DNA of 64,000 nucleotides from Yuukianura sp. NJ FZ-2021 (taxonomy: Eukaryota), in contig CM102285.1 of the NCBI GenBank assembly GCA_046563655.1, forward strand, positions 1,798,001-1,862,000, read 5' to 3'. The notes beneath the pieces are model-generated. The model was given only the letters and a program-made list of their open reading frames with translations, was not told the DNA's origin and ran no database searches. How positions within the stretch are numbered: the stretch's first letter is position 1; the number at the start of each line of letters is the position of its first letter. Shown one piece after another: positions 1 through 58,925 of this stretch. The translations under genes and the position numbers were made by a program.

Positions 1-49
1 GCGGACACCCTGGAAACTGGGGGTCAAAATGCCGCTGTAACACATGAAA

Positions 50-329
50 TGAAAAATGATCTGGGACATCGTAGAAAGGTCGTACAATGACCCACAACAT
101 ATCAAACTTTAGGAAAAGACTTGATCTAGTTTCTCGCTAAAAAAAATTACAAAGTTTTAGTTCCATCTATGTAAATATGGAGGTGGAATGTTTGGGTCCA
201 TTTTTTTACAGTTACAACTAAAATTTTGTAATTTTTTTTTAGCGAGAAACTAGATCAAGTCTTTTCCTAAAGTTTGATACATTGTGGGTCACTGTATGAC
301 ATTCCTACGCTGACCCAGACCGTTTTTCA
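50..329. mobile_element. Foldback / MITE-like inverted repeat
   Basis: Bases 50-162 are the imperfect reverse complement of 216-329, with a long perfect core (TCAAACTTTAGGAAAAGACTTGATCTAGTTTCTCGCTAAAAAAAA). True ends are unclear near the window edge. Confidence 0.75.
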
Positions 330-3300
330 ATTTCAATGTCGCAGCCTCAGAAAAATTGTTGACAAAACCCAGACGACGGCAACCGAACTTGTGTCTTGTG
401 TATTTTGTTTGTTTGAAAGTGCATACTTTTTTTGATCATCTTTGCACTGATCCTTTTTCACCACTCACGAGGGTGTTTCTTTTTGTCGATGTCTGCATCT
501 TTTACTAACTGCAAAAACTCGGTTATCGTGGTTACTAAATTTAACGATTATTGTTTATTAGACGCATAACACACGTCCTTAAATCTTTGCAATTTTTTTT
601 TGAAAAAGTATTTTGAATCAAGTATGGAAGGTATATTATCAGCTACATTTGAAGTGAGAAACAATGCCCTATGCTATGCAATGTCCATTTCCGTCCAATC
701 ATCTTCCTTAAATCAAAATCCAACAATTTTCAAGCACTTCCATCCGCATTTCCTCACGCATTTCACGCTCATCATCTGAAAAAACGCTGTAGGTTCGATC
801 CCCCGTGTGGTCAAATCCCACCACAACAAAAAAAAACAATTGAAGTCCAATCAATCCATCAATCTGCCTCAGCTAGCTTCAAGCAATCTCAAAACAATTC
901 TCTCCTTAGAAAAGCTGAACTAAAAAATTCAAACTTCAGTGAACAATAGAAAGCACTGTGGCTTTTCAAAAATATTCGCACCATAATCCTAAATTCAAAA
1001 GTTTCAAATCCCCCAACGCGCAAATCTCTGCCACTGGCTATCTCAACATAACGTTTCAAATTTCAAATCCTCAAAACTCGCGCCATACTTACGCTTATGA
1101 ACATGAACAAAAACATTTTGAAAATGAGAACAGAACCACGCATCGACCGACCGGACGAAAGCAATTGTCATCTCGTTACTTTTGATCCTCGTGCAAAAAT
1201 CTAATCTTATTTTATACGTATGCGCACAAATTGCGAATTCTTCTACATTCTACTCCGCATCTGCGCATACTTCTGCCTGGCAAATCCTCTTAAGCTTTAA
1301 AACCATAATACTTATACCTGATCTTACACAAATTTCATTTGTTATAAAAAACGCTTCCGCACAAGCACCTATTGTTTAAAATTTCCCACTGAAAAAAAAG
1401 TAGATCTGCACTTTAAGCACATTCCCTTTCAATGGAATTTGGTAATGGAAGTAGAACGAGAGTTCAGTAACCACGTAACCATTGAGTAACCATTCATAGT
1501 AACCATGCTCATCCTCATTAACTCAATAGCCTACACTACACTCTCCCTTCCTCATAAAATCATCGTCTTCCCTCTTGCTAGCACTCGTTCCATTGTTGTT
1601 GTTGCGTGCAGAGTTCTGCACATGCGCACAGCTCTCGGCCTCAATCTATTAATAGCCTCAAGACCTCCCAGTGCTCATCAGTCTATTGTTAAGTTATTCT
1701 TGGCATACCGTAATCTATTGTTAGACCCTGAATTCAATTACAAGCCGCACTGGAACGTTTTGAGACTTCCAGCACGGTGCTGACTGGCAGCAACACAATG
1801 ACGATAACGTGCAAAACCAAAAAATTCCTCAAAGGAACGTGCTCTGTGTTTTGATTCTTCGAATAGCCCTGTTGGCATTTACTATTTATAACCTCAAGTC
1901 AAAATACCGTAAACGTTCTGGTAAAACCCCAAAATACTCGAAACGCTTAAAACTCATACACTGCTAACCTAACGGTATTCAAACTGTATCTATCATTATA
2001 TACTACAGGATATTAGATTTATTACATGTATACACCTGGATATTAAAAAGTGTTAACATTCTAAATTTTAAGGTATCGAATTCTAAATTTACGAATACCT
2101 ACAAGATACTCCAGGCACTTACAAAATCCAAACTTTAGAAAATTTGCATTAATTTGTGTACATTTTGGAATACAAACAGCATTTCCGAGGCACTTAAATG
2201 ATTTCAAAGTTTTGAAACATTATCGTGTTTCCTTATAACTTAACAAATGTCGATACATCCTGGAAGGCAGCGTAATTAAATTATAAACTCCGGAAATTTA
2301 CGGTATCAAAACATTGCAGGAGCTTCCCACGCAGCTGTATTGTACTCTTTGTATTGACGGCGTTCTAGATAGGTTGTACTATTTAAAACGCCTTGGACAT
2401 AATTTGGTGTAAATTTGCGGAGGTTGAATCGCAGGGAAAGTACTACGGTTTAAATATATTTCCATTTTCCAAGTGGTTAAACGTGTGTTATTAGGTGTCT
2501 TCACTTCTTTTGTATACATAGTGGAAAACGCCCTACTTCAACCCAGTAATCGTAGTATGCCAAATAATACATTTTTTTCTGCTCTCCTTTTATGCCAATC
2601 GATACAAAAAACTGCATCTGGCTACTATTTAGGCATAAAAGCAAATTTGGCAAAGGTGGATGACCTCTTTATGGAATCCTCTTCGCCCATCATTCATTCA
2701 AAAAAATACAAAAACCAATAACACAAAAAACACTTTGCAAAAGTTACGAAAAGTAATGTAGTTTTTATCGCTCAACCTACGTTAAATGCTCAATTTTCAT
2801 CCACTTAGCAAATTTTCCAAACTACAAAAAAAAATTCAAACAGCCTTTCACTACTTTCTATTCGAAAAAATTCATTTCAAATTATCACTTTATGAAAAAA
2901 TTCCGCAGTCAATCTCAGAATTTCGGACTTTTTTATTTGTCCAAATGCAGAAACTTTTCTGTATGTTAAAACTTTCTCTGCGACGGAATATTTCAGTGAA
3001 TGAAATTCATCCGCTTATGTCCGGTTTCTTACCAATGTTTTAGCTTATTCAACACAATACGTGAATTTCATTTTATGCCAAATTAAAATTTGCGTGCAAT
3101 TGTGCAAAAACGTGCGTGTTGTTCACATTTGACACATGAACGCTGCTTTAATTGCTCCTTTTGTTTGTATTTTTACTTACATCAGGCTGTTCATGTTCAA
3201 TATAATACGTAATTATAATTTAATGGTGGCAACAATGAGCATTTAAGCAACAACGTTAGAATGTTCATTTCAACTGTGTCTCTGCAACTACAAAAAATTT

Positions 3301-6300
3301 CCAGACCACAAAATTTTCTAGTGTTTTGAACATGAACTAAACAGAATAACAGAAACTAACCAGAGAATTTTCATTGCAAAAGGTACATAAGGAGACGAGG
3401 ACTTTGCAAAATTACGTTTTGCAACTCATGGGCAACCGTGCTGCTGCAACATTAAACCAAACGGAGTAAAACCAGATGAAGAGGAAATGTCTTCTGCCAA
3501 AACATTTTCTAGATTTTTAGTTTCATGTCCTAGAATTCCATACTTTTTTTAATTTTCAAGAGCCTCAGTATTAGGTCACTTGCCACATATTCTCCCAATC
3601 TTTGTTCTAAAAATAAAAAAAAACTGAAACTTTTAAACTAATATAACCCAATTTTATACAGAATTCTGCGTAAAAGGTATAAAGACAGAATTGTTCAAAA
3701 TTTCAAAATTGTGAAAGAAAAGAAAACTGATGATTGGAAATCAAAATCCTTCAAAATCTTCATCTGCAACAATCCTACTTCAATTGCCAGGAGTTCAAGG
3801 AATAAAACCTGATTGGATCTTTGCCATTTCCTTACCGGAGCGAGTCTCACTCTGCCCCGAGTTCAATATGTTCAGAAATAGCTGGGAGGGCGGGAAGCCG
3901 GAAATCCAAGATGGAAGAAGCGGGATTCTTGGAAAATGAAATTCTATTCCAGTAATCCGTCTTACACTGTCAATAAGACTTTTTAAATTAAACTCCGTAG
4001 TACTTCCTCCAAATTACTCTGCAGAATGCCTACGAATATAAATTTTCTACTTCCTTTACAAAATCCTCTCAGTTTTACATTTCCACTTTTACATTTTTGA
4101 ATTTTACATTTCAACTTTTTTTTATTGGATAGTTCTGCTTTCACAATTTTGGATTTTGGGATAGCTTCAGCTTTTACATTCCAAATCAAGAATTTCCGCA
4201 TTTGAAATTTTAACATTTCCAGCTTTTATTTCAAATTTTGCGCTTTTACTTCTTGCTGGGTTACATGTAGTTCCTATACAATTCTATTTACGTTCAAAGT
4301 CCCCTTTGTTCAAATTGCAGTTTTGAAATTCTTTTAAATTGAAGTTCTTTTAAATCCATCAGTGTATTCTCTTTTTATTCCTTAAAAACTGAAATATCTT
4401 GAAAAATAATGCATGTTAGTATGTATTTTTTGAAATTTGGAGTGCAAATAAACTCATATGAGGGGGCAAGGGAAATGATCGTTTTGCCGGAAATGATGAG
4501 GGGAAGTTTAGCCCAGATTTCCTGGGAAAAAGCTTAGGCTTCTGCTCTAGTCTAGCAAATGTGCAAATAAACTAAAAGCCAAAGCGAACCAACTCTCCCG
4601 TTTTCCCAAAAGTCTCAATTTCCGATTTCCCTTTCAAAATCCAAACTAAAACTAGAGAAGTAGAGAATGGCAGAATGAGAACGCATGGAAGACTATCATT
4701 AGATTGTAGGATTCTAGGATTTAGATTTCAGACTAAAACATCTTCCTTCTGTTCCACATTCCAAACATCCGCTTTTCTCTCTCTCGCCTTGTCATTTGCC
4801 CAATCCCAAGTCTACGTTTTACTGAGTCAGAAACGACAGAAAATAACAAATCTAACCCGCAGTTGGCATTGATAGAACCAGAACTTAAAAAAATGCAAAC
4901 ACATTCCGCTTCCGTAAAAATTAGAACACACATTATGCCATTTTCAATAAAGTAAAACAAACGAAGCAAGTCAAAATTCAAAGAAAATCAAAAGTTTAAT
5001 TAAAATACTGAGCAAACAAATTACTTGTTGCAAAAATTCTAATGAAGATTCAGTTTTTCTTCAAAATTTGTTACTCACTCACAAACAAACATTTTAGTGT
5101 TGTAAATCAATTTCGCTTGCCAAGCATCGTAACTTTAAAGTACGCACTAAAATAAAAGTTGCAAATTTGCAAAAATTTGGTTTCTGCATATATTTGCGAA
5201 TTTAAATCTCATAAAACCGTGGGTAGCTAGCTATAAATTTTACAAATGAGTCTGCATACCTGGATTTAAGATGCTAAGCTGGTTTCATCGTTTCAGCGTT
5301 TTTTGCTATGTACAGTCTGTGCCAAAATGAAGTGTTCAAGTGCACATAGATACTCTTTCACCAATTTCATAAAAATTTAGTGATGCATAAAAGTAGCTTG
5401 TAAAACAAGTACAAACAGCATCAACAGCAGGCGACTTTTTCCTGTATAAGCTGCATGTAATAAGTTGCTACTCGACTAAAAATATGCTAAAAACGACAAA
5501 CCAATTGAATTTTTAGCACAAAATGGCGCCAGTTGTTTAAAAAAAGTGAACTAAACCTTTTGGTTTAGTTAGTTAAAGGATTTTGAAAAAAAAATGCGTG
5601 TTTCAAAAATCAAAATTTTACAAAAACTTCACAAAACTGTGATTCCAAGAAAATGTTAGTCGGAAAGCATTAGACATGCAGTTTTACAAACTCTTCTTAA
5701 ACAAATGAAAAATCCTTCGTTAACTTGAAAGTTTCCTTGTACAGACGGTACGGTTTGAAACTTTGTGCGTATTGTTCCAAAATTTGAGATTCAGAATTTA
5801 AAGTTTAAAAATTTAATAAAAATAAAAACGAAAATGATATAAGGAGCATAAAAACTTTACTGCCAAATTTTAAACTTTTGCAAAGTTTTAAAGTTTTTAA
5901 AAGTTTAAACTCATAAACACTAAACTGTATGTTACACACAGCATCAAAAAAAGCTCGTTAAACCCTAACTACAGAAACTTTAAAACTTAAAATTTAAATT
6001 TCCCTTACACAACAGTACCCATACACCGTGCATAGTTCACCTAACGCGTGCCTTAGGTTTCAGAAAGCACAGGTCAACGACCGCCTAAAATGCCCTTCAA
6101 AATTTAAACTTCCCGCCCCATTCTCTCACTTAACTTGCCCATTTAAAATCTAATGGTGCTCCATTTATGTGCTCAAATGAACCTATTCCCTTGTCTCAAT
6201 TAATAACACTCTCACAGCTCCACAAAATTTTCAGCACAGTCTCAGCACTACTTTTTAAACTCTCAGCATAAGTATCCATTACACCCAATATGCTACACCC

Positions 6301-9300
6301 ACCAGACACTCATTTTCAAATTTCAAATTTTCCCTCCTAATCTCCTCCCTGCAGCATCCCCAATTTCAGTCTCAGATTCAAACTCAATTTCCAAAAAAAA
6401 AATCTTAAGATTAAGTTTTCTTTTAAAAAAAAAGTTTGCAAAATAAGGATTACGCTTCTGAAAAAAATTTGAAGACAAGGTTTTGTTTTTCCTAAGAATT
6501 TCTAAAATTACTCTGCTCATCTGCTCTTCTTTGTGTTAAAAATTTCTAAAATTATCCAGCTTATCCGCTCATCCAAAAATCTCTCTACGTGAACTTTCGC
6601 ATTTTCGCAATTCTTTGTGAAAATCCTTAGCCCGAACACCTTTGATCTTCAAGATCAAAAGGTTTCGGATTTCGAAATTTCGAAAAACCCTGTTCCCTCT
6701 CCCTGGGAAAAAACTTTCAACTTTGTGCAAAAAAGTGAAAACTAAACTACTCTGTTCATTAGCACTTTAAAACACAAGGAAACCTAAGGGATTCGCAAGC
6801 AGCTTGCAGCCTTTCGACAAAACCTCGCGCTTTTATGTTTTAGAAACAAATTAAATTTAATTAGCAACTCACTACAACTTTTCATTTTCTCCCGCCCTTC
6901 TAACAAGCAAAATCCTTCATTACCTCACACTTTTAGGTACTCTCGCGCCTGCTCTCCGCTGTTTTGGACGTTGATCATTCTCTAATTTCAAATCCAAAAC
7001 TGGGATAATCTGTACCCATTCAAAAAAACTTCGTCCTTGACGTGCAAAATTTACAAACTGCAAAGCGTATTCATTAAATCTCAACAAAACATTATAATGT
7101 CCTACTTTTTGCGTTCTTTTCATTAGCACGTACCATTTCATGTTTAGTACATAGTCTCCAACTTCCTGTCTCCTTCTAAAGCATTACTTGAAAAAAAGAA
7201 GTGTTAATTAACATGCTTTGTGAAAACTGTTGCTGTGAAAAGTGCTTCTAAAAATTTGAAATCCAATGCTTCAAAAAAGGCTTTTGTACTTTCATGTAAT
7301 TTATACTCCTATTGTTACCGCATAACGTTCCTCATTATACCAAAACTTTCGTGCTCCATCTCATTCACGATCCGGAAAATGAGGTGGGGTGCATGCGCGG
7401 ATTCGTTAACATTCAAATTCCGTACCATGGAACATTGGTCACCCATGTACACCTATGTAATGACAAGCATTCAAAAATAAACTAACAAAAAAGCGCCAAA
7501 AATACAATTTTTCGAAATTTGACTTCCATAATTTACTCTTCTTAATCATTCTACTTTGGAATCCTGTTTGCCCTGCGACAGGTCAAATGACATGTCAGCT
7601 ATGACAATTCTGACCTGCAGGTCAACCCGCGTACGGCAAAAACAAACATTGACTTCGGTGTTTTTGAAAAATAAAATTTGAGTTTTTTTTCTGTGTTTTT
7701 CCCACAGTGTTCTGGAGTTACCGCTACGCTGCTTTCACACGAATTTCGAAATTTCAAAACTGCCCAAAGCCTAAAAACAAAAACCCGGGCATTTGTCATC
7801 CGCTTACTCCGGATTTCGCTTTTCAAGTTTAGTCATCTGTCACTGCCAAGGTTTTGTGACCTGCGGAGGTCATTTACTGTAACAAAGGAACTTCAGGTCT
7901 AAACCCAAGACCACACCGTACTAACCCGCCTAGCAGAAACGAAATCCGTCTCGCGGGAAAGGCAGTTGTCAAATTCAAAATTTCCCTAGCGACCTTCCCT
8001 TCTACATGAGACTCCACGAAATCTATTTCCCGTTTCCAGGCAAAACTTTTCCTGGAAGGCTCCTTCTCAATGCTCCAGATAAGTTAGGCTATGTTTACGT
8101 TAGGTTGTTAAGTCAGACAGTATCCGTGGATCCTGGCAATGTTATTACCCAATCGCTTCATCTCTGGATTGATGTCTCCCGCTTTGCAACAGGAAAACGT
8201 AACATTCCACGCATCCCTGCCTCTAAACATGGTATTCAAAATGTCATAATTTTCAAAAACTGAAAACGCTTCAGTCCAAAAGCGTTGTGGCGTTCCAGCT
8301 TATCCAGACATGGAACAATGGTTGGTGAGGGATGTGAGATTTCCTTCCAAAATCCATTTCCTCATCTATCCAACTGTGACAACTTGTATTCATAAATATG
8401 GAAAATCACCTTCAACCATTATGCTCACTACTTCAATGCCACTGTTCATCCAAAATCTAGCACAAACAACAACTTTTCCAACTGACACCAAATAAACGAT
8501 GTACGTAAGTGGGGAAAGCACTCCAGGACAGACCATGCTGAACTTTGGCGCACCATATAGTTACAAACGGCAAAATGAAAAAGTTGACCTTTGACCCGGA
8601 AAGAGGTCAATTTGAGGCAAATGATGTAGACAACGTTGTTTATCTCGATGAGAAGAAAAACTAACAGACACACAAGGTCGATGCATCAAGTAGCTTTCGC
8701 TACTTAATAATCTAACCACTTAGGCTCTACTTTAGACAAACAACGTGGAAAATATACAAACAAGGACGTTTCCTAAACTAATCGTCACTGAAATCAAATA
8801 ACCTCACAAACATACCGTAATCTCTTCGTAAGCGACCTGCAGCAATGCAGCAACATAGAACCATTTGAACTGAAGTGTTTGTTTAAATGTCATAACTTAA
8901 GAAAAAAAATTAAGGTTATGCTTAAGCTGTACTTTACGTTGGATTTCAGTTTCAGAAAACGTTCAGGCCTTTTCAAATTTACCAATTTTTAGAAACTCGT
9001 TTTTAGAACAAAAAAAAATTTTACGAGCTTTTTCAAAACAAATGGACAAACAAAACAAGTCGACATAACCTTCAGCAAAACACGAAAATGCTGTCCCAGC
9101 ATATTAGCTGAACTTTTTAAAAACCTGATTCATCAGGTTTGTCTTCATTTTAACCGGTTTTTGGAAGTAAATTCTCCAATCATTCCGTTGACCTCTTCAG
9201 TCTTTGCATTGCGTTTACACAGCACACATATACGTTGAAAAACACAAGAAAATTGTGAAAAATTTGAAAATTTTGAGTAGCAAACCCACAAAATTCAACT

Positions 9301-9763
9301 AAAATGTTCAGTTCTCGTCATCGTTACGATTCTCTCCCGCCATTTGATTATCATCGACCAACTTGGTTGCAGCTCTACGGCAGATATTTGATCGGAACGT
9401 AAGAACATTCCTACTTTGCATTACTTAGCATTTGAACAAAGTATCTAAACTTATCACGATTATCTAAGAAAATTCATTTTAAATCTCAGTGCAATTCTAC
9501 TTGCTGCTGGATTCATTGCCATGACTGTGTTTAAGTTGTGGACAAGCGAAACTACTAGTGACGATTCGCTGCATCCTATCCTAACTTGAGCAACAAAAAA
9601 CCTACATCACTGCATAATTTGACCGAATTAGCACTACCGAACATAACGCGTAATAGAGGCCCCGCCCTAAGTTTGAAAATTTACGGTAATCACTGTTAAC
9701 ACAAGTGAGAGTAATAAAACTTCAATATTTAAACATTAAAAACTAAAGACATTGGATTGTTAC

Positions 9764-10655
9764 CTGTGTGAGTCCGCTCATGCGCCTTGAGATGAGAGCT
9801 CTTCGTGTACATTTTCTTACATCCCGGGTACATACATCTATGGTTGCGTCGTTTTTCTGCCCCACCATCCTCCGTCCCACTAGAACCACTGCTCCCCTCA
9901 CCCACCACCGCCCCCACAACTACTGGCTGACTACTGAAGACATGACTGGGGGACGAACCGGCAGCTTGACTCTTTCGACTCGACACTTTGACCCTCCCGC
10001 TACCCCCAGTTGACCCCACTGAGGAGCAAGAGGAAGCTGAAGACGATGACGACGACTTAGTGACAGGGTTGCCACTGTCCGCATTGAGACCATTGCTACT
10101 GGAAGAGAGGATGAGTGCTGGGGGGCGGTGGAAGAGGAAGGTGGTGGGGTGGTGGCCCAGGGGGTCACGCTTCCTCCTCACAGGGTGCAGCATGACATTG
10201 ACTCCGCCGGCCAAGATGAGTTGATGGTGGTAGGAGTGGGCCAAATGAGGGGGGCACTCCGTTGGACTGCCGCCTGAGTCCACGTCCGTGGCTGACGGAG
10301 AGGAGCCGCCTGAACTGAGGGCGTCCAGGGAGTCATTGCTATCACTGAGGTCAAGGAAGCAGTTCCGACGACTCTTCTCACAGAGGTAGTCGTGACTGGG
10401 GTCATCCACTGGAGAGGGACTCCGACTGCGCTTGGCAAGCAGGAGTGACCTGCGCCTTAGTCCCTCCAGATCGTCATCACTGCTCAGTTTGCCGGGAGAG
10501 GAGGACTCACGTCCACGGTCCCGGTCACGGACGGACGCTTCATGACTGGCGAAGGACGGAGAACTCACGACTGAAACGGAACGACTTGCACGACCGCATT
10601 TGATGAGGGAGGGGTATGGATCCTCCTTCAGACAACGTTCCAGCTCATAACAAGC
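9764..10655 (-). CDS. luna: Krueppel-like factor 6/7 (luna-like), coding exon 2 (Ser-rich region plus zinc finger 1); gene 3'-incomplete in window
   Basis: Acceptor TTTTAATTGCAG| is followed by [13 protein letters not shown], continuing the KLF6/7 motif TCLELERYL. The exon ends [31 protein letters not shown] with a phase-1 donor G|GTAAC. No exons for fingers 2-3 were recognised in 1-9763. Confidence 0.93.
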
Positions 10656-10794
10656 CTGCAATTAAAAAAAAAAACAAAAGTTTTAGTAAATTTTCAGAAA
10701 TTGTTCATTCCTAATTAACCTAGTATAAATCTAACACAATTTTCATAATACATAACTCCCCATTACAAGAATTTCAGAAAAACAACCCAGACAA

Positions 10795-10913
10795 AGGTCA
10801 ATGACACTTGAAGTGTAAAAGTTCAATGACCTTTGTATTGTGAAAGGCCAATGACACTTGAAATGTGGAAGGTCAATGACCTTTACAATGCTGGGGGTCA
10901 ATCTCAATGAACT
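10795..10913. promoter_or_regulatory. Tandem array of IR1 nuclear-receptor (EcRE-type) elements, 25-bp period
   Basis: AGGTCAaTGACAC (10795), AGTTCAaTGACCT (10820), AGGCCAaTGACAC (10845), perfect AGGTCAaTGACCT (10870) and disrupted GGGTCA...TGAACT (10895). The sequence pattern is certain; function is inferred. Confidence 0.6.
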
Positions 10914-13799
10914 TTACAATATCAGACTTTCGGCAATCAGACAGACAGACACAGACGTATACACAAACAATTCTCATTTATGATTGACGACAGACAGCAT
11001 TCAAAGTTTGAACTTCAAAGTTTTCCAAAAACCTCAACATCCCAGACTTCAAAATTTTAAATTTTAACTCAAAACTTCAAAACTGGAACTTCAAAAAATT
11101 TCTAAAACCTCTCGAGACGAAAAGAACTGAAGTTCTTTCACTGCTTTTGGAAGTCAAAAACTAAAAGCATTTTTTGGTAATATTTTTCAAGTTTAACCTT
11201 GAAATATTTACTGAAATTCTACAGAAAAACAAGAAAAGACAAGAAAAAGTCAAAACTTGAAAAAAGAAGGAAAAGTTAGTTATGGAAAGACTGACTTTTC
11301 GAAAAGTGTAAGTCAGGTACTCTGTCAGAAAAAAGTTATTTGCGCAGACGCAGAAATAGAGACGCAGACAGAGAAACTATTAATTATTTTTAAAGCCTCG
11401 TTTTCACTCCAGTGAAAGCAATAGACACCCAAAAACTAAAACTTTTTCATTCCATTTTCTCATAAACTTTGTGCAAAAAGGTTCCCACTTCTGGGAAAAG
11501 CTTCTCACTTTTTACTACAACGAAAGTTAAATTAAACCTTAGCACAACTTTTTTTTTTACAGTTTTCTAGTATAAAATGAACATAGCCTAACCTTAACTC
11601 CTTCGGCACTTTAAACCTTACACCACAAAATGAAATTGGAATCTTCCCGCCATTTTGAGTACTCACTTATATTCCCACCCCACAACAATATTTACTTTCC
11701 AAAAACACACACTTTACCCAAAACACACTCAAGTTTTAAAACACTCAAGGTTTTATAACATTCGGCCAGGGGCTTTCCTTTCCCGCATCCAATTTCAAAT
11801 TATTTAAAAAAACTAAAAGCCTACCAGTTCAGTTTCACTTTTTAATTCACTTTCACTTTATTTTTGAACCAAATCCATCCGCCATTTTATTACGGTCCAA
11901 TTCCATTTCCAAATTCTCCCGCCTTTCTTTCTACATATGCTTTTACCATCCTAAGGGCATCAAGGAAACCTGGCTCCCTAAATTATGCAAATTCAAAATT
12001 CAAACAGTTTGGATCTCGCGCCATTTTCATCTTCAATTTGCAAAGTTACTTCGCAAAATAACAGTTTTAAAAGCTGAGCACAAAACGCAGGAGAGGAGAT
12101 GGAAGTTGAAATTTTTCTCAAACAAGAGCCAATAAAGCATCAAAAAATAATAATTTTAACCTTAACTTTTGCTCACTTACTCTGTTTTGAGTTTTTCTTG
12201 GCTCACTCTGTACATTGAATTTAAACTAAATTGAATGTTAGATATGCCACACGAAAAGTGGAGCAACTGGTTTTGACACCTTCTCTTGCTCTTCTTATGT
12301 AATAGTAACTACTTTTAGTACAAGTCCTTTCCAGTCCTAGTTTTACATTCCAGATTCAAGATCAAAGGATTTGGTGCTTAGCCTTGTGTAAAAAGCATTA
12401 GAAGCTGATCTATATTCAGCTCCACTTTCTCTCTGTTTACACCAAATCCATACGCTGTAAAGGCCTTCTGCATAAATAATGAACAGCAAAAGATCAAAAG
12501 TGGGAGAAACATTACTTTTACTCAGAATTCGAAACAATTTCCACAGAGTGAAAGCATTCATGAATAGCATATAGATTTGAATTTCCCTACCATTCTCTAC
12601 ATTATTCCTGACCTATATTTCCTATACTAAAGACAAAACTTCGAAAACAAAAAGTTAGTTTAACTTTTTGTTTAGATAAAAACTAATGTTGTTTAGCTTT
12701 TGGTTGACGTTTGTTTAGGTTAACTTTAACCTAGTTTTTTGAAAACAAGGTTTTACATGTGTAAAAATATCACAAAAATTCCACCTGCTCACAACGGGAA
12801 AAAATTCCAGAAATTTTCTAGGAATCAAAATAAATTCAGATTCAGAATAAAATTCAAAGAAATCAGAAGGCTGCTTACGCACGCACAAGCCTTAAAATCC
12901 ATTTTGATTCAAATTTAGCGTAAAACCCAAAAAACATTTGTTTGTGTCAGAATCTAAATTTTTATGAAAAACAAAATCAGAAACCGTAACTTTTAGGAGT
13001 GAAACCTACAATGACTAGCATAGGGTTTGAGCTTTGTGCTAATGACTTCGGAAATTACCGTCAATTAAATTTCCATTTTGTTTCTAGCCTTTCCCATTTT
13101 CTCTCAACTTTGATCTCACCTCCTAACATTAAAGTTACTTCCTCCGTGCCGCTGCGCAGATAGTAAAGTTTATCAATAATGAAAACTATAATAAAAAAAA
13201 AAGTTACAAATCGAACGCTTTGCTTTCCACTTTGTTCGAACAAAATGAAAAAAAATCTTGTTTTACACAAGAAGAGGAAAAAACGAAAGAAAAATATCAA
13301 GTCGGCAACTCCGTGTAGAAAATTTTCATTTTGCGAAAAAAAAAAACTTTCACCAACTCGCAAAAAAAGCATAAAAATACACACTTAAAAATCAAACTTT
13401 GATTTCGAGAAAAAACGTTTACAGTTGATCTCATGAAGATACAAATTAGAAAAAAAAACGTTCACTTTAAAAAGAACAGCACTTTGTTTAGTTCAAAACG
13501 GTTTTCAAAAAACAACTTTTTGAAACTTTCTATTTGCTTTTGATCTGTGTACGTCACGTTTTACACAAAGGAGCAGGTTTTTAATTACAAAAGCCTATAG
13601 CGTATTCTCAAAAACGACTTTTCACTCTCTCAAATTTTCTCCACTTCTCATCCATTTCTCACGAAATAATTTTAATTCTTTGGCCCAAATGACAGTTTTA
13701 GAAAAGCTGCGTCCATAAATTCTCACAGTTCCAGTTATTAAACAATGTCTTCTCCAACAGCGTAAGTAATAAAAGAGCTCTCAGAAAAGGCGGGGTTTT

Positions 13800-13899
13800 N
13801 NNNNNNNNNNNNNNNNNNNNNNNNNNNNNNNNNNNNNNNNNNNNNNNNNNNNNNNNNNNNNNNNNNNNNNNNNNNNNNNNNNNNNNNNNNNNNNNNNNN
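13800..13899. other. Assembly gap (100 N)
   Basis: Run of exactly 100 N, a typical placeholder of unknown true size. Confidence 0.99.
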
Positions 13900-15320
13900 G
13901 GGGTTTTTCAAAAAAAAATCGAAGAGTGCCAAAAAAGTCTTTCAATGAGGGTAAAAGATGCTTTTTCCGTTTTTCTTACGAACTATGCAGCAGCCCGAAA
14001 ATCCCTCTGCAGAATTTGATCTCTTCTTTGCCTTGGCTTTTGGCTGGTTAGCTGCCACTGGCAGCTAGAGTAGTGCCAACCCTTTCAAAAGGAAGATTAG
14101 GACCAGCCAGCCTACAAATCCTTTCCTGCCAAAGAAACCTTATGGAATTTTACTCAAATGGAACAATAGAAAGAGTCAAAAAAAAGTAAAAAATAGAATG
14201 ATAAAGTACTTTCTCCCTGTCTTCACTGCGAACAAAAATCAAAAGGTCAAAGGTCAGCCTCATGAATCCTCCTTTACACAACTTCCCGTCATTTTTCAAA
14301 TTTTTCATTTCCGAAAAATTTCTATTTTTTATTGTAATAATTCCAATAAAAATCTATTTCCAAAAAGTCAAAAGTCACGGTCCAAAAATTCGACTTTCTC
14401 CCTGGAGCAGAAATTTCCTGAAATTACCAGCAAACTTAAATCTCCGAGTTCGTAAAAACACAAAAATTTGTCCAAAACTCAAATTTTTAAAAAAAGATAA
14501 AAGTTCGTGCGTATATTTCTTAATGTATAACTGTTATGGGAAAATGGAGGATTTTGAGTTAGAACTTCTGAGTAAATACAAAAAGAACAAAATTTTGAAA
14601 AGTCATTCAATTATTTTTCAGATTACAAAAAAAAAATAACAAACAAACAAAGATTTTAAAGGTAAAAAAATGTAACTTGTCAAACAATGTAATCATTTTG
14701 AGTTGTAACTCTGCTTGTCATGCATCAAAATATTATGTTGCAAAATCTTGAAACAAGGCAATTTTTTGAAGTAAACAAAAAAGGACGTCTTTTTTTTGCT
14801 TACTAACAATTTCTACAACAAACTCCTTAAAAAAATTAACAATTATGTTTAAGTTATACATTGACATCTCTGCGTTTTGTGACATTACGTGCCAATTCTT
14901 GCAAAAACTCAAAAGGTTACAAACGATAATTTTTTGCACTACTGCATGCTGCATAGTACTACTGCTTGTGTTGAAAAAGGAAAAGTTTTGGTGTAAATAT
15001 ATCTTTTACAAAAAAAAAGTTCAAAAATTAAAATACTTTCTTCCTGGCTTTTGTGTGGTTTTCAAAACTTCCTCCACTTTTGACTTTCGCAGAAAAAGTT
15101 TTTGCAACGCAAAGCAAAACAGCGTTCAAAAGAAAACCTCACTTTTCTCTTAAAAAGCCTCAAACTTCCCTTTCCGCTCCAAGTACAAAATGACAAGCCC
15201 CGCTTCTCTTTGTGGTTTAATTTCCAGTTCCTACCGCGCTATAATTCAAACTTTCAACATTTTACGAAAAACTCTAGTTTTAGCTAAAACACACGAAAAC
15301 ACATAATGAAACAGCGGTTC

Positions 15321-16552: not shown

Positions 16553-16890
16553 ACCTTCCATTTTTCAAAATTCGAAGTTAGGTCAAACTCCATTTTTCAA
16601 AATTTAAAGTTCGGTCGGTCACACTCCATTCTCAAAATTGGAACTTAGGTCACACTCTATTTTCAAAGATTCTAAGTTACGTCACACTCCATTTTTCAAA
16701 ATTCAAATTTAGGCCACACCCTCACACCACATTTGAAACAAAAATTCTTAGCCGGTCACACCCAGCTTTTTAAAAACTCCAGGTTGTGACTAATGTGTCG
16801 CATTAGAAATTTCAAAATTTCAACGTCTGTCACACCCCAATTCAACAAATTCAAGCTCGGGTCACGCTCCAACTTTAAAAAAATTCCTGG
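16553..16890. repeat. Degenerate ~32-bp tandem repeat (GGTCACACTCCATTTTTCAAAATT...)
   Basis: Units start near 16581, 16617, 16648, 16680 and 16712, with decayed copies to ~16890. Confidence 0.8.
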
Positions 16891-24700: not shown

Positions 24701-24788
24701 ATAGTTTGAATAATCTAACTCGAAACTTTTACTTCCTATACACTATTATTACGATTACAATTTCCGATTATGTTACGCAGTTTGTTAC

Positions 24789-25017
24789 CTGTTGCGCAGT
24801 TTGTGCACTGTTGCGCAGTTTCTGCGCTGTTGCGCAGTTTCTGCGCTGTTGCGCAGTTTCTGCGCTGTTGCGCAGTTTCTGCGCTGTTGCGCAGTTTCTG
24901 CGCTGTTGCGCAGTTTCTGCGCTGTTGCGCAGTTTCTGCGCTGTTGCGCAGTTTCTGCGCTGTTGCGCAGTTTCTGCGCTGTTGCGCAGTTTCTGCGCTG
25001 TTGCGCAGTTTCTGCGC
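24789..25017. repeat. 19-bp GC-rich minisatellite TGTTGCGCAGTTTCTGCGC x12, followed by (TA)n
   Basis: Near-perfect tandem copies, each containing the palindrome GCGCAG-TTT-CTGCGC. A (TA)n tract follows at ~25020-25048. Confidence 0.97.
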
Positions 25018-34950: not shown

Positions 34951-37900
34951 CGTCTTCAGCACCCCTCTCCCTAAATAATGGTGACGTAATTCGTAAATAT
35001 GTGCCAGCGCAACAAAATTAAATTTGCTCCGTTTCTCCCATCTTCCATGATATAATTTGGAGTACTACCCGGGTATTATCCCTATTATATTCGTAACCCC
35101 CGCTGGAAATGACGTAATACTTCCCTATATCATGCAAATAACACCCAGAAAAAACTTTCAACAAAAACAAATCTTTCTCCAAGCAACATGCATAATACCA
35201 AAACACATTGTTGTTGATGCTGCACCTTACATTTTACAATCTACGCACCTCAATCATCTTTCCCTCTTCATTCCTCGCACATTATTATTCCACTAACAAC
35301 ATGAATTGAATCTGATGAACATTCCTTTCTACCAAAAACTAAAAAAAAACAGGCCTGGGAGCATTTTTTTTTCTCCCATCTACCAGTATAGCTGGGCAAC
35401 TAAAAATTACAAAAGGCAAAAACCTCAAACGTTTTCGTCTTGGTTCACACGCTTTTCTCTCATCATGATGCTCATCCTTCCCTCGCCTGCTTTTACATGC
35501 AACTCCTTCAGAAATGTTACCATAATGCCCACATAAGGCACCGCTTTTTTAACATTATGGGAACTTTTTCAAAAATAACTTAATCCCAACAATATTTATT
35601 TTTGACAAAAGAGAAAATGACACTAAAGACGGATGATTTGTGTCCATGACCTACTCAAAATTCCACGCCACGCTCAGTTAAAAATTCATTCCAAAAAAGG
35701 ACAAAAAATGCACATGCGCACTACGAAAAAAAACGAAACCAAAGTCTTATTATTGTTCCATTTTTTTCTACTCCAAACTATTCGTTACACATTCCACAAA
35801 ACTGGTCGTAAAAAGTTCATCCGTGACTCGTGAGTAGTAGATGAGAAACCGGCTTAAAAACTACCAAAAACCTAGTTTCAACTTTCCAAAAATTTCAAAA
35901 AGCTCAAAAATTCAAGTTTAAAAACAAATTTTTTAAATACAATGCTACATCCGCAACTTTTGTTTACGATTTAAATTTTACTGAAAAATTTCAAGCTCCA
36001 TTACATTCAAAAATCGTCATTTTTGACTTATCAATGTGAAGTATTCGTGCTGAAATTCTGTGCCATTCTCAAAAACTTTTTAAATGAAAACACCGCTATT
36101 GACAAAATTTCATTTTTTTTTCCATTCTGAAAAAATCCATGCAATGTTATTGTTTCCTTTTGACTTTATAAATAGAACTTTTCATGTGAATAATTTAGTT
36201 CCATTCTCTCCCCTTCCGTGTCATTCTGCTTTTCATATTATTAGAACCATATTGTTAAACTTTTCGTTTTTTTCTTTTTTTTCCAACTTCCTTCCCTCTA
36301 TCGCTTCCATTCCATCAAATACGCACCGACTTCACGCAATGTGTGTCCAAAAGACCGTAACAATGGGCTACGTAAACTTCATCACAAATCTTGTTCCAGC
36401 AAAGCATGACCATATCCTAGTGCCCTAACCTATTCATATGCAAAGCTCCACTGTGCGTATTGTTGTACTTTTCAAAACAAGTCACAAAAAATTTCTCTTT
36501 AGGTATTCGACTTTTTACAGGTGAGAGGATTACAGGTAGGGTTACAGGTTACAACCTGCTTTTTCAAAAAATCCTAATGCCTTTCACTTGATTTACACTT
36601 TACCTTTTTAGGCTAGGTTCAGGTTAGGCCTATTTTTTGGTTAACATAAACTAAAAGTTAGGCTAACGGAAAGCATAACCTATTTACCAACCGCAGACAA
36701 ATTTTTTACTTAAGTATATACGCATCTATAAAATTACGTTTTTTGTAAGAAACCAGCAGGTATGCATAACTTGAGTCAAAAGATGCAGGAATTCAGGAAA
36801 TCCCAACGACAACGTCAGTGTACGACTTTAGACTTTAGCCAATAAAAGCCCTTTCTCAGAAATACGTTCAAAAAGTTTCTCATTTTTTGAAAAGAATTTT
36901 TCACTTTCTTTGAAAAACAGAAATCATTTTGCCCTTTAAACTTTGAGCACACATTTTCCTGTTCGAACCAAAATCGTTTTCATTTCTAAGAAAAATGGAA
37001 AAATTCGTGACTTCTGCAACCTTTGATATTTTTAGGGAAAAAATCAGTTTTCTTCAGTCATATGTGAAAAATTTTCAAAAAAAATAAAGTATCGTCGATG
37101 ATTTTAAAAATACCTTTGAATGTACGCTTAAAGCCAAGTTCAAACTCGCAAAAGTACGAATAAAAGTTAAGCCCAGATTATTCGAATTTCGAAAAGTCAA
37201 TGTAAAAATTCATCCATAGAATGTAAATTCAAAAATAGACGATAAGCCTTACAGCCCACATGCGCCAAAAATTTTGAAGTGTCCCAATTTAAGCCAAGTT
37301 CACATTCGAAAAGTAAAAGTCAACAAAATATGCGCATTTAGCAGCAAAATTCCAAAATAGACGAAACCTCCACAGGCGTCAAAATTTCGAAGTTTTCAAC
37401 CAACTTAAGACTAGTTCACATTCACTCATGCAATTTTCAGTAAACTTCACATCAAATTGTCAAATCACATTCGTGAATCATGAGTAGAGTACATACAAAT
37501 AAAATCTACACTTAATTTGCAAATGCAATCAGAAATTCAAAACAAAATGGCAAATGGCGATTGTATAGCTAGAGAACTTAAGCCTAACTCTCACTCTCAC
37601 AAAATTCTTAGAACAATCCAACAATTCACGTTGATAAAAAAAAACCAAAACAAACAAATCTCTCTAAAAAATTTTTTGTCTTCCAAAAACTAAAAAAAAA
37701 AGTTCCAGTCAAGTGGAAATACGTGAACAAAAACGCGTGATCATGCATTATACTGCATATCAGTATGCACTTCAAGTGTCATATAAGTTTAAGCAAATAA
37801 AATCCTAGTACTTGTCCTTCCTACACGTTATAAAACGCTGTTAACTTCCTAATACCAAAATTCAAACTTAACATATTTTTTGAAAATAACAGCAAGTGTT

Positions 37901-40407: not shown

Positions 40408-40562
40408 CTTGAAAGTAATTGCTAAGCTTGTGACAAACTAATTAATGGAATGACATTACACTCCAAACACACTTGTAATATTCACCGTTAGATTAGGCAA
40501 TCTTAAGTTAGGTTGCCTAACTAAAGCTAATTTGAGAGAAGAATGTGAATTGTTCTGCTTAC

Positions 40563-40664
40563 CTGGTGCCAGTAGTCTTCTGGAGATGCTTGAGACAGGA
40601 GGTATCCAGTATCATGAATGGCTTGAAGCTCATACAAAATCCCAACACTTGGAAGGATATCCAT
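40563..40664 (-). CDS. luna: Krueppel-like factor 6/7 (luna-like), coding exon 1
   Basis: Hand translation from ATG 40664 gives MDILPSVGILYELQAIHDTGYLLSQASPEDYWHQ, matching the KLF6/7 N-terminal motif (MDVLP..IFQELQIVH.TGYFS..PSLEEYWQQ). It is 102 nt and ends at a CAG|GTAAG donor in phase 0. Too short for the ORF track. Confidence 0.92.
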
Positions 40665-48784: not shown

Positions 48785-51700
48785 TCATACTCCCAAGTAA
48801 GAGTTCCGAATGATTGTGGATGTTGGTGGTGGTGGTGCTGGTTTTCTGAAAATTGGAGGAGTAGAAGGTGCTCTAGGACCCACTGCAGTAGAAGTGGCTG
48901 GTGGGGCAGGCGGAGGTGGTGGGATGAAAGATCTTATGAACGTTGTAGTAGTGCTTGAAGTGGCTGAATATTTGGGTGGTTGTGGTGGACGGGTCAAACT
49001 GCCAGTGAAACGAGGAGTTACGGCCGTCGTCAACGACGACGATGCGGATGATGTACCAGCTGATGTGGATCCGGTATTGGTAGCAACACTATCAATAGTT
49101 GCAGAAGCATTGCTGGAAAACAGTGGATCCAAATTCGGTTTCACATCGCTTCCGGTGCTACATCCAACTGAATTGAGTGGATGTGAAGGATGAACTATTG
49201 GATAAGCTGGATGTGCTTTGATAAAGCGTGCGATTTTGGCCAGCCTCATCATCTCCTTCTTCACTTCAATTTTTATCCATTTCTTCCTCTGCTCGGCCAC
49301 CAGTTTGTGGTTTATCAAAAAAACGAACCGGAGCTGTGAGATCTGAAAAATCAAAAAATAAATCCAATCATTACGGAGTTTGCGGTGTAAATAAATTATA
49401 CAAATCATAGAATTTAAGAAGTCTTTTTAGTACTAAAACTTTTAAAACAAAAGTAAGAAAAATGAAAATAAAACTATCTTTAAGTTAGTAGATTCGCAAA
49501 ATCGATAAGCTTACTTCGATAACTGACTGGTCTTCGACTGGTCCAGCCTTTCTAGGCATAATAGCGTTTCCGTCAACATAAATCGCGTGCTTTCCTTGAT
49601 TCAGAATGACAAAATCTCCCAATGTCCGAAGCTGAATCGTCGCTTGCCTCCGAGACACTTTGTACGCAGATCCTTCCATGCTTAAATCCGCGTCTACATT
49701 CAAACTTGTTGGGGTTCTTCGGCCCAATGTAATCTGTATTGCACATATACCAAAAAAACTGTTATTACACATAAGGTTGATTAGCATTGAGTAATTAGTT
49801 AAACGTTTCGATCACCTCTCTGGATCGCATCAAGTATCGGACTTGCTTCCCTCGCAACATTGCAAAAGATCCTTCTTCAAATGGAGCTTGCTCGAGTTCT
49901 GTGACCATGTCAGCCAGCACTTGCCATCTCGACACCTCTTCTTCCAAAGTTCGGATCATTTTCTTCGCATGACTGAAAATCAATTATCCAATTATCAATT
50001 GTATGTTGTAAAAACAGTGTTGTATATATTTAAGGGTCAGGTGTTTTTTTTCGTTTCAGTGAAAGAAACTGAAATAAACTGAAAATTGAAAGAAACTGAA
50101 AGAAACTACAGCTGTTTTCTTTCAGTCCATAAATTTAGGTTGGGAAAGCAAAATTTCGTTTCACCTTAAAGAAATGAAAAAAATTGAAATTAACTGAAAC
50201 TGAAATACCCACAACATACCCACAACATACCAACAACATACCCACAACATACCAACAACATACCCACAACATACCAACAACATACCTACAACATACCCAC
50301 AACATACCAACAATATATCAACAACATACCAACAACATACCCACAACATATCCACAACATACCAACAACATATCCACAACATACCGACAACACCAACAAT
50401 ATATCAACAACATACCCACAACATACCCGCAACATACCAACAACATACCCACAACATACCAACAATATATCCACAACATACCGACAACATACCAACAACA
50501 TACCCACAACATACCCACAACATATCCACAACATACCAACAACATACCAACAACATACCCACAACATACCAACAACATACCTACAACATATCCACAACAT
50601 ACCAACAACATACCAACAATATATCAACAACATACCAACAACATACCCACAACATACCCACAACATACCAACAACATACCAACAACATATCCACAACATA
50701 CCGACAACATACCAACAATATATCCACAACATACCAACAATATATCCACAACATACCGACAACATACCAACAACATACCCACAACATATCCACAATATAC
50801 CAACAATATATCCACAACATACTAACAACATACCAACAACATACCCACAACATACCGACAACATACCAACAACATACCCACAACATACCCACAACATATC
50901 CACAACATACCAACAACATACCAACAACATACCCACAACATACCAACAACATACCTACAACATATCCACAACATACCAACAACATACCTACAACATATCC
51001 ACAACATACCAACAATATATCAACAACATACCAACAACATACCCACAACATACCCACAACATACCAACAACATATCCACAACATACCGACAACATACCAA
51101 CAATATATCCACAACATACCAACAATATATCCACAACATACCGACAACATACCGACAACATACCAACAACATATCCACAACATACCAACAATATATCCAC
51201 AACATACCGACAACATACCAACAACATATCCACAACATCCCGACAACATACCCGCAACATACCCACAACATACCAACAACATACCCACAACATACCATCA
51301 ACATACCGACAACATACCAACAACATACCAACAACACACCAACAACATACCAACAACATACTAACAACATACCCACAACATACCCACAACATACCAACAA
51401 CATACCCACAACATAATGACAACATACCCACGTATGGTTTTGGGGTGAAATAATTGACTCGAGACGAGAGTCAATTATTTTTAATTATAATTGAAAATTT
51501 AATTTTGGAGGGTGTTCAAAAAATAATTTTGACCAAAATAATTGTAAATAATTGAGCATTGAATACCCCCTATTTTTAAGGCAATCTTTCACTCAAAGCA
51601 AAAGTTCGTTTCAGTGAAAGAAACTGAAATAAATGAAACAAACTGAAAAATTGAAAAAAAAACATAAATAAACTACAGCTGTTTTCTTTAGTTTAGTTTC

Positions 51701-55500: not shown

Positions 55501-58500
55501 ATGTCGCCAACTACGGACGCTGCAGTTGAACGTACCCCGTGTCCAGTTTGTCACCGTCATGTTACCGGATCCTTCCCCAATCATTTACAAACACATTCAA
55601 AGCAAGATTTAATCTATGCCATCATCAACCAGTACAACACTGTGGGTGTATCCCCAGTAAAACCCGGGTCCCATAGTAAGAGGTCCTCACATGGCAGTGG
55701 GGGTTCGCACCAAAGAGCTCGGAACTCTACATCATCCGCTTCTAAGAAGACGGCTAATAATGAACGTACTAAACACGATCTACATCCGGAGCAGCTCGAG
55801 GAACCTGAGGAAAATAAGTTGCAGGGAGTGTCGTTGGCTCCTGAAGCTTCGGAGTTGCGAATTCCATTAACAGACCTTTCTTCCACGGAAGAACCAATAA
55901 CACAGCCGCTGTTTCTGGAGCTAGAAATTCCTGAGTATGGAGCTAATGAGGAGGCGGAGTCAACCGAAGTTATGCCAATCCAATGTTGCTCGTATATATC
56001 AGATCCAGGACCGGAACACAATCCGGATGAACCAAACCCACAATTTGAGACTTTGTATCCAATTGATCAGCCGGAAGAGACTACCGTTCCATCTACTTCT
56101 GGTTCACATTCGGATTTTATTCAGTACATTATCGAAGCTGTAAGTCACGTTTTCTAATACTTTACTTTTTCGACTCATAAGTAAAAATCTAACTCTAATT
56201 GCATATTTTGTGTCGAATGTAGCCAATGTCTGGAAACCACGGAAATCAACAATTGGCTGAATGGATTTTGCCAGACGGTCGCTCGATTCCGGTGTACTCT
56301 ACATTGGCACCAGACGCACCTTTAGGTGGACCAGTAGAAGAGGATCCGTTGTCCATGGATGCGGAATCTTCTCATTCTCAAGCAACAATCTTACGCTCTC
56401 GTTCAACTACGCAGCAACATGAGTTTGATTTAATGACTGATGAAGAGATACCACCGAGAGGAGTAATTTCGGAGTTTGAGGAGAGCAACACTTCGTCTCA
56501 ACAATCTGATGAACTGGTAAGTCCTGTTCGTCTTTTCCTCTTTTCCAAGTCAAACTTTCTCATACTTACCAATTTAACTTTGTTCCGCCATTTTTTCAGA
56601 ACAAACCTGCTATAAGCATTGGCCCCACTCTTGGAAGTTTGTTCACGAATGTTCGACGTTTACCATCAACAGTTGTTTCTAAAAAGAACAAGAAGAAGAG
56701 GAAGAGGGCTTCAGCTACTGTCGAGGAGACAGTTGAAACAAAAAGTTTAGAACTTGGCGACACTCTGATTTCAGTTACCACCATCCACTCAACAGCTGAC
56801 TCTCAATCACATTCATCTTTTGTTCCTGAATTGGTCACGTCGGATACTGAAGCGAACCAACACAAGTGCCCGGAGGCGAACTGCTCACAGGTAGTGTTTC
56901 CGAAACTTCGGTCAATTAACTATCTTCATTATAGCCACACATTGTTGCCACTTTGTATCGCTGCAATAAGCACTACACCTAGTGGCAACATTTGTAACCG
57001 TTCAAACCTAAAGAGGCAATAAAATGTAGCCCACAGAGTAGCCGAATTGTGGCTGCAATGACGATCGTTAAACCTTACTCCAATCGAAACTTCTGACTTC
57101 CACTGTCATCTTTGTGCTCTTGTTACTTGCTTTTGTGAATAACTAACATACTAATATTATGCGTTACTCTGTACAGGTTGGAAGCATTTTCGAACTGGCA
57201 CAACATCAGGAGAGAGTTCATCAGAAAAAGTACAAGATAAAGAAAGAAAAAGAAACCTCTAGTCGAGCGAATTCAAATAGTAGAGCGGCAGCTCTTCTAG
57301 AAGACCGAAAACCTACGCTAACAAAGACAGGGAAAGTTAAAGTTCGAGTTCGGAAGGTCATAAACCATACCAGAGGCAGTGCGTTCCAGTGTCCATACTG
57401 CCAGTTCTACTCTGTTCACTTGAAAATACTACATGGACACATCAAGGCCAATCATCCAGGACAACCTCTCAAACCTCAAGAACATGAATGTATAATCTGT
57501 GGAAAAATATTTCAAAAGAAAATGAACCTTCGGAAGCACGCCCTCATTCACGGGTGAGCAATTTAACAAATACTGAACACAAACTACTGTTTAAAATCTG
57601 TGCTCACGAAGGTTTGATTTTTAGCGGCAAGAACTACAAATGTGACTGTGGCAAAGCGTTTACGTCGGGTTTTAAACTGATGGAGCACAGTCGGGTCCAT
57701 ACGAAACATTATCCATTTCCATGTAGTCAGTGTGATCGAAATTTTCGAACTCCGAGCTTACTAAAGGCCCATTTGGTAAGTTGACTAGTTCTTTTTCAAA
57801 CGTTTTGTCAACTTTTTAAAACGTGTTTTCAAAAATTTTTGAATTTTTTAGTACATTCAACAACTTTTTCTTTTTATTTTAAGGCCCGTACCCACCCAGT
57901 GCCAGGTACTCCGGCGCCGGAACCTCGAATAAAACCGGAATACTTTTGTTCATTGTGCTCTCGAGTGTTGCGTTCCAAGCGAAGTTACGCCAAGCATATT
58001 GAACTTCATACTGAACCATCTCAAAAGTGCCCAACGTGTCATGAAGTTTTTCCTAAAAGTGCACTCCTAACTCGTCACATTCGCATTGTACATGATCCAA
58101 CATACGAAACGAAAGAGTCTAAAGTAAGACCTGGACAATCTACAATATCCAACCAATCGACGTTACACGAAGTATTTGTATTAACTAAGTTTCATGATTA
58201 ACAGGACTGCCCAATTTGCTCGAAGAAGCTTCATCCCAACTCAATGAAGTCTCATATGAGGATCCACGATAATTCGAAACCATTTTCCTGTTCAGTTTGC
58301 AACAAAACGTTTCGGACTTCGGCCAACTTGACATCACATTCCTGGAGTCACTCAAGCGCAGAGAAGCCCTTCAAGTGCTCACAGTGTCCCAAATCTTATC
58401 TTTTCAAGAAATGCTTAGAAGTAAAAAACTAGATGTAATTTTTCTCAATGAACTTACATTTGATAGGCTATGATCAAGTATTCTAATATTTTTTTTTTAT

Positions 58501-58925
58501 TTCTAGGTTCATCTCATTGTTCACAAGAACCGTCGTTTTCATTTTGTGTGTAACGAGTGTGGAATGAAGTTCACAAGCAAAGTCAACTTGAAGAGACATT
58601 CACAGGAACATTTTTCAGAGAAAAAGTACAAGTGTAGTATATGCCCCAAAAAGTTTCATAGGAAGTACTATTTAGTGGAACATGAGAGAGTGCACTCGGG
58701 AACGAAACCGTATCACTGTTCAGTTTGTGGTAAACTATCTACGACGAGGAGCAACCATCGAGCACGTAAGATGAATTCAGCTTATTAGCGTAGAACCTAA
58801 TTTCACAACTTTAGTAAAAACTTAACTATGCATCGCGAAATACCAAGATTACTTACTGGTTTGATTTGATTTTTGTAGATGTGAAGATACACGATGCCAG
58901 GGAATCTGGAACACAAGAAGTCTGA
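55501..58925 (+). CDS. Multi-C2H2 zinc finger protein (~14 fingers), 9 coding exons
   Basis: Exons 55501-56139, 56223-56516, 56600-56890, 57177-57553, 57625-57775, 57884-58123, 58205-58420, 58507-58765 and 58879-58925, all GT-AG with compatible phases. Fingers are completed across junctions, e.g. CSQCPKSYLFKKCLE|VHLIVH and CSICPKKFHRKYYLVEHERVHSGTKPY. Confidence 0.88.

Follow-up and report, generated by a model that had tools for sequence, protein, structure and literature searches.

A length-polymorphic minisatellite of receptor-type palindromes in intron 1 of a springtail KLF6-like gene

Introduction

A close known counterpart of the repeat studied here is the IR-1 (PAL1-type) ecdysone response element (EcRE), in which an AGGTCA half-site is followed by its inverted copy after a 1-bp spacer. 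IR-1 is bound by the DNA-binding domains of USP and EcR, was used in the crystal structure of the USP-DBD/EcR-DBD pair (1R0O), and is called an idealised, non-natural element (PMC1885670). Papers on FXR and FXR/RXR, among them one whose title names the FXR/RXR heterodimer on inverted repeat DNA, also contain this 13-mer, which therefore does not identify a single receptor pair. [quoted passage not shown]

At the level of DNA architecture, the relevant comparison is with minisatellites, or VNTRs, which are found in introns and promoters, consist of head-to-tail units of roughly 10–100 bp and have alleles that differ by whole units. Our literature search returned no paper on ecdysone response elements in Collembola and none on AGGTCA in springtails. 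Receptor sites are also known to be multiplied by repeats, human Alu elements being an example.

We report here the analysis of a 64,000-nt stretch of Yuukianura sp. DNA (hereafter the window). An earlier reading of its sequence had singled out a phased array of palindromes beside exon 2 of a KLF gene and proposed that the array is an ecdysteroid enhancer making this KLF6/7 gene a direct moulting-hormone target. In this original prediction, such a link was not known to have been described for luna. Our search agrees, as none of the papers it found describes luna as directly targeted by EcR, and supplementary lists of hormone-induced genes may bear on this point. The data below indicate that the array is probably a young, local and length-polymorphic minisatellite lying within a lineage-specific excess of AGGTCA words.

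Results and Discussion

The array lies in intron 1 of a KLF6-like gene

On the minus strand, an open reading frame of 310 codons (9729–10661) has a KLF-type first zinc finger at its end. Among named proteins, the best match to its product is annotated at NCBI as Krueppel-like factor 6 and comes from Folsomia candida (E 4.7e-28, 40% identity, 100% coverage); the next are to the KLF6 of Artemia. When the F. candida KLF6 protein was used as a tblastn query, exon 1 was found at 40664–40560 (86% identity) and exon 2 at 10661–9735 (41%). The coding part of exon 1 (40563–40664, minus strand) comprises 34 codons from the ATG and corresponds to the start of F. candida KLF6. Exon 2, delimited by the open frame, the protein search and an RNA contig, occupies 9759–10655 on the minus strand and ends in the first C2H2 finger; in Pfam, the zf-C2H2 match of its product is weak (residues 272–296), and no Pfam family was found for the 34-residue peptide of exon 1. 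Within the whole-window search, tblastn of 1–9728 found no exon for C2H2 fingers 2 and 3, which therefore presumably lie beyond the start of the window.

The junction between the two exons was recovered in an RNA contig of an outdoor metatranscriptome (run X6). Over 10465–10658 this contig shows 0 differences, and its next 30 letters match the end of exon 1 exactly in reverse complement. This contig confirms the splice and thus defines intron 1 as a 29,907-nt intron at 10656–40562 on the minus strand, with a GT donor at 40562–40561 and an AG acceptor at 10657–10656. An assembly gap, written as a run of 100 Ns, is present in intron 1 at about 13800–13900. With its conserved N-terminal exon and its KLF-type first finger, the gene fits the KLF6/7 (luna) type that had been proposed. 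The placement of the array 140–260 bp into intron 1 was also accurate, as it is located 140–258 nt upstream of the exon 2 acceptor.

The array is a 25-bp minisatellite with a 50-bp super-unit

Tandem Repeats Finder reported a repeat of period 25 at 10793–10880 (3.5 copies, 77% matches, score 113), and a repeat search recovered three 42-nt copies, 25 and 25 apart. Together with a comparison of the repeats, Tandem Repeats Finder delimits a 25-bp minisatellite with a 50-bp a/b super-unit at 10793–10920 (this and the other repeats, palindromes and segments described below are given without strand). The units start at 10795 (a1), 10820 (b1), 10845 (a2), 10870 (b2) and 10895 (b3). The a units open with AGGTCAATGACAC (10795) and AGGCCAATGACAC (10845), and the b units with AGTTCAATGACCT (10820) and AGGTCAATGACCT (10870). 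Divergence between units amounts to 12–24%, and the two 50-bp super-units are 88% alike over 42 nt. This likeness and the Tandem Repeats Finder result support the earlier view that the array was built by tandem duplication.

A search with the degenerate core RGKYCAATGAMMY matched exactly the four in-phase units, with 0.10 matches expected. The fifth unit (10895) begins in phase but contains 6 inserted bp; over its tail it resembles the b type (17 nt, 94% like 10873–10889). The order of the units is therefore a/b/a/b/b′, and the exact period holds in four units only. The array had been described as five units that alternate a/b/a/b at an exact 25-bp period: four units are indeed in phase and alternate, but the fifth departs from this description by its type and its insertion. 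The word "phased" fares less well, as 25 bp corresponds to about 2.4 helical turns; successive sites would thus be turned by about 0.4 helical turn, and the period would have no helical meaning.

With head-to-tail units of 25 bp, the array falls within the size range of minisatellites, from which it differs in that its units are themselves receptor-type palindromes. Each a unit also contains a second palindrome, ACACTT-G-AAGTGT, which is perfect in a1 (10804–10816) and has one mismatch in a2 (10854–10866), so that the array alternates two kinds of palindrome. When the array is folded as single-stranded DNA, a pairs with the neighbouring b (−26 kcal/mol, z = −4.4; 0 of 200 shuffles as good). 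Such pairing fits slippage-prone DNA and may help to keep the cores alike. A search of Rfam across 9500–12500, at E up to 1, gave 0 matches to known RNA families.

Two units are close matches to the IR-1 element

The perfect IR1 palindrome noted in the original prediction (AGGTCA, a 1-bp spacer, TGACCT) is present at 10870–10882, and its 13-mer AGGTCAATGACCT is the single occurrence in the 64-kb window; the accompanying AGTTCA-A-TGACCT is found at 10820–10832. Both fit the degenerate IR1 consensus of the ecdysone response element literature. No other position in the window does so, and 0.05 matches were expected; the two lie in 120 bp. When one mismatch to the consensus was allowed, six matches were obtained (2.08 expected), three of which are within the array. 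Similarly, the IR1 13-mer with up to 2 mismatches is found 7 times in the 64-kb window (1.55 expected), a number reached in 0 of 100 shuffles. By sequence, these two units thus match the EcR/USP type of site, the 13-mer at 10870 being letter for letter the idealised IR-1 of 1R0O (PMC1885670). In vitro binding of EcR/USP to the IR1-type units is plausible judging from these letters. The a units are poor receptor sites: the second half reads TGACAC in both, and a2 reads AGGCCA. By eye, the units share an invariant centre, TCAATGA, while the outer letters of the half-sites vary.

The spacers had been judged more diverged than the palindromes. In agreement with this impression, one 50-bp copy departs from the other at 10 of 24 positions in the spacers but at 2 of 26 in the cores (Fisher p = 0.007, for a small sample of related units). 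Lower divergence in the cores than in the spacers is the pattern that constraint on binding sites would give.

The two IR1 matches, the binding of IR-1 by the EcR and USP domains and the better-kept cores are the arguments for a working ecdysteroid-responsive intronic enhancer. In such an enhancer, EcR/USP would bind b1, b2 and, weakly, a1, and would turn KLF6/7 on or off at the moult; the number of units would set its strength, and the length alleles described below would differ in their hormone response. Klf15 of H. armigera provides a precedent as a KLF-family gene with an EcRE, but it is another KLF paralogue, and its site is in the promoter, whereas the array is intronic (PMC9191741). Were the array a true hormone switch, a KLF6/7 gene would be tied directly to moulting in an early-branching hexapod, and the two length alleles would constitute a natural experiment in enhancer dosage. 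We consider this reading unlikely. In addition to the poor quality of the a units and to the lack of any paper found linking luna to EcR, the evidence from length alleles, from relatives and from the surrounding sequence stands against it, as described in the following sections.

The perfect IR1 is not present in all alleles

The window stretch or part of it is present in six public runs, four of which were compared over 10000–11400 at 85% likeness. Two of these runs, X1 and X2, come from one sample, which is probably the source of the assembly. The long form of the array is spanned by a contig of X1 (10748–11029; 0 differences) and by one of X2 (10748–11026; 3 differences, 2 gaps). In run X4 (organism B, from a different study), a contig of 270 nt has another structure: 10792–10835, retained with four differences, is joined to 10917–11137, and 81 bases (10836–10916), i.e., 3 × 25 + 6, are skipped. 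Run X4 has no cover at 10846–10892, and its evidence for the short form is this contig, which joins across the gap. The joint falls between two b-type units, and the skipped part includes the perfect IR1; the coordinates of the second consensus match, at 10820–10832, are inside the part kept by both length forms. X1 and X2 each also yielded one contig that departs from the window sequence after 10835 and continues into letters like those from 10917 onward, with some differences.

As long and short contigs were both found, the array occurs in two lengths, and the long one is no assembly artefact. The alleles differ by whole units, as those of minisatellites do. A conserved cis-regulatory element is expected in all alleles or relatives; here, the perfect site is carried by an allele that is not fixed, being skipped in the X4 contig and accompanied by a short form in the probable source sample. 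The short form could be ancestral, or it could have arisen when a functional array recently lost units. As a separate observation, one contig of X2 reaches the array at 10792 through a different upstream sequence with two further AGGTCA words, and it represents either a different allele or some other AGGTCA-rich genomic site.

Such an array is lacking upstream of exon 2 in two other springtail KLF6 loci

A metagenome scan with a KLF6-like product gave three loci, two of which (L001 and L002) were examined upstream of exon 2. In L001, 7.2 kb of intron precede exon 2, whose start (ACYELE...) is the same, and 448 bp are available for L002. From base composition, 3.3 AGGTCA/TGACCT words would be expected in the 8,286 bases of L001 and 0.5 in L002; one was found in L001, at a distance of 3.7 kb to the acceptor, and 0 in L002. 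A search with the IR1 consensus, allowing up to one mismatch, gave no match upstream of exon 2 in either locus. The conservation in the orthologous intron of relatives that an old enhancer would display was thus not seen in these two loci; both relatives are distant, with products that share about 40% identity with exon 2, so that the absence excludes deep conservation only. Taken with the length alleles, these data indicate that the array is neither a fixed nor a conserved hormone enhancer.

AGGTCA words and pairs are in excess across the KLF locus

The AGGTCA/TGACCT word is present 53 times in the window, against about 25 expected. The excess is confined to one part of it: 44 sites were counted in 1–42,600 (15.8 expected) and 9 in 42,601–64,000 (8.8 expected). 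Thirteen close pairs (sites no more than 40 bp apart) were found, whereas 200 first-order Markov simulations gave 0.36 on average and never more than 3. All 13 pairs are located between 7.5 and 42.6 kb, i.e., in the KLF gene and just upstream, and none is in the last 21 kb. Two of them are within the array, and the remaining 11 form direct or everted repeats. These 11 pairs span 7580–42577 and include the exact DR1 AAGGTCAAAGGTCA at 14243 and at 27318 and everted repeats at 7611, 7857 and 40966. Intron 1 also contains a second minisatellite (16557–16719; 32 bp × 5, 76% matches), each unit of which bears an AGGTCA-type extended half-site of the TTAGGTCA type in direct orientation.

As AGGTCA pairs that are not of the EcR type abound at the KLF locus, an IR1 motif match carries little information here. 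The proposal of an ecdysteroid enhancer acting on a direct moulting-hormone target, already undermined by the unfixed site and by the two springtail loci, is further weakened by these pairs and by the poor a units. As an alternative to a neutral word excess, the confinement of the close pairs to the KLF part of the window could reflect a receptor-rich regulatory landscape. The situation resembles that of receptor sites multiplied by Alu-type repeats in that the half-sites of the array have spread by copying and not by point mutation, and in that a second AGGTCA-bearing array is found in the same intron. It differs from it in that the units were duplicated locally and in tandem, and searches of the window found no dispersed element.

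A second alternative is that the array and the other AGGTCA pairs would be read by receptors other than EcR/USP, for example by monomer or homodimer binders of extended half-sites. Candidates for such binders are receptors of the HR38, HR3, E75, FTZ-F1, USP, HNF4 or Svp types. The predominance of direct and everted pairs, including the two exact DR1 copies, would suit these proteins. The 5′ flanks of the 53 sites are purine-rich, with A or G in 40 of 53 at −2 and in 37 of 53 at −1, but this preference is weak. On balance, we find this explanation distinctly improbable. A broader version, in which the array would be a node of a lineage-specific, genome-wide layer of AGGTCA words read by expanded receptor-type DNA-binding proteins, with the number of units acting as an allelic dial on the response of KLF6/7 to these proteins or to the moulting hormone, is a conjecture from sequence to which we attach very little probability.

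The unit and its flanks are unique in the window

BLAST found no second copy of the unit within the 64-kb window, the best hit being a 15-nt exact match at 37768–37782 in unrelated sequence; neither did it find in the window a second copy of the flanks (10660–10800 and 10905–11400). In X1 and X2, the contigs that carry the long array reach depths of 71.7 and 40.4, less than the exon contigs (232 and 244, respectively), and give no sign of high copy, a weak argument as contig depth is no copy number. The summed depths of the flanks exceed the exon depth, but they derive from many short overlapping contigs (63 for X1) that are maybe haplotype bubbles. An origin of the array as a piece of some dispersed transposable element or satellite would agree with the several contigs at 85–99% likeness that the probable source runs contain for the flanks 10680–10800 and 11030–11130 and with the X2 contig that enters at 10792 from different, AGGTCA-rich letters, but given the single copy of unit and flanks in 64 kb, the lower depth of the long array and the possible haplotype bubbles, it is the least credible of the explanations.

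A proposed local origin by slippage within an AGGTCA-rich locus

We therefore favour, as the probable though by no means certain explanation, that the array is a young and local minisatellite whose length is polymorphic and which belongs to a lineage-specific excess of AGGTCA. A segment of about 50 bp with two imperfect palindromes, a and b, would have been copied head to tail; pairing of each palindrome with its neighbour would have made slippage or unequal exchange easy, and alleles of about two and of five units would now coexist. The array would then be one instance of the lineage-specific word excess that fills the KLF locus, and its selected function would be little or none. Under this favoured reading, a textbook-perfect receptor site can arise and vary through simple repeat slippage, and, at a locus rich in AGGTCA, a motif match alone tells little about regulation.

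Other features of the window

Repeats of other kinds are present elsewhere in the window. A 19-bp unit is repeated 13 times at 24771–25017 with 97% identity, each unit containing a GC-rich inverted repeat (GCGCAG ... CTGCGC), and this repeat explains the 4.4-fold excess of the GCGCAG/CTGCGC hexamer. A 1.2-kb satellite at 50205–51428 has an 11/22/33-bp period of the ATACCMACAAC type (87% matches) and accounts for the extreme GC skew of −0.6 at 50–52 kb. Apart from this segment, the GC skew of the plus strand is near zero past 40 kb; over 1–40000, which corresponds to the minus-strand KLF transcription unit, it is steadily negative, at about −0.1 to −0.4, and may reflect a transcription-linked strand asymmetry. 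Finally, weak tblastn matches to C2H2 finger repeats at 57600–58800 on the plus strand suggest a putative separate gene encoding a multi-finger zinc-finger protein.
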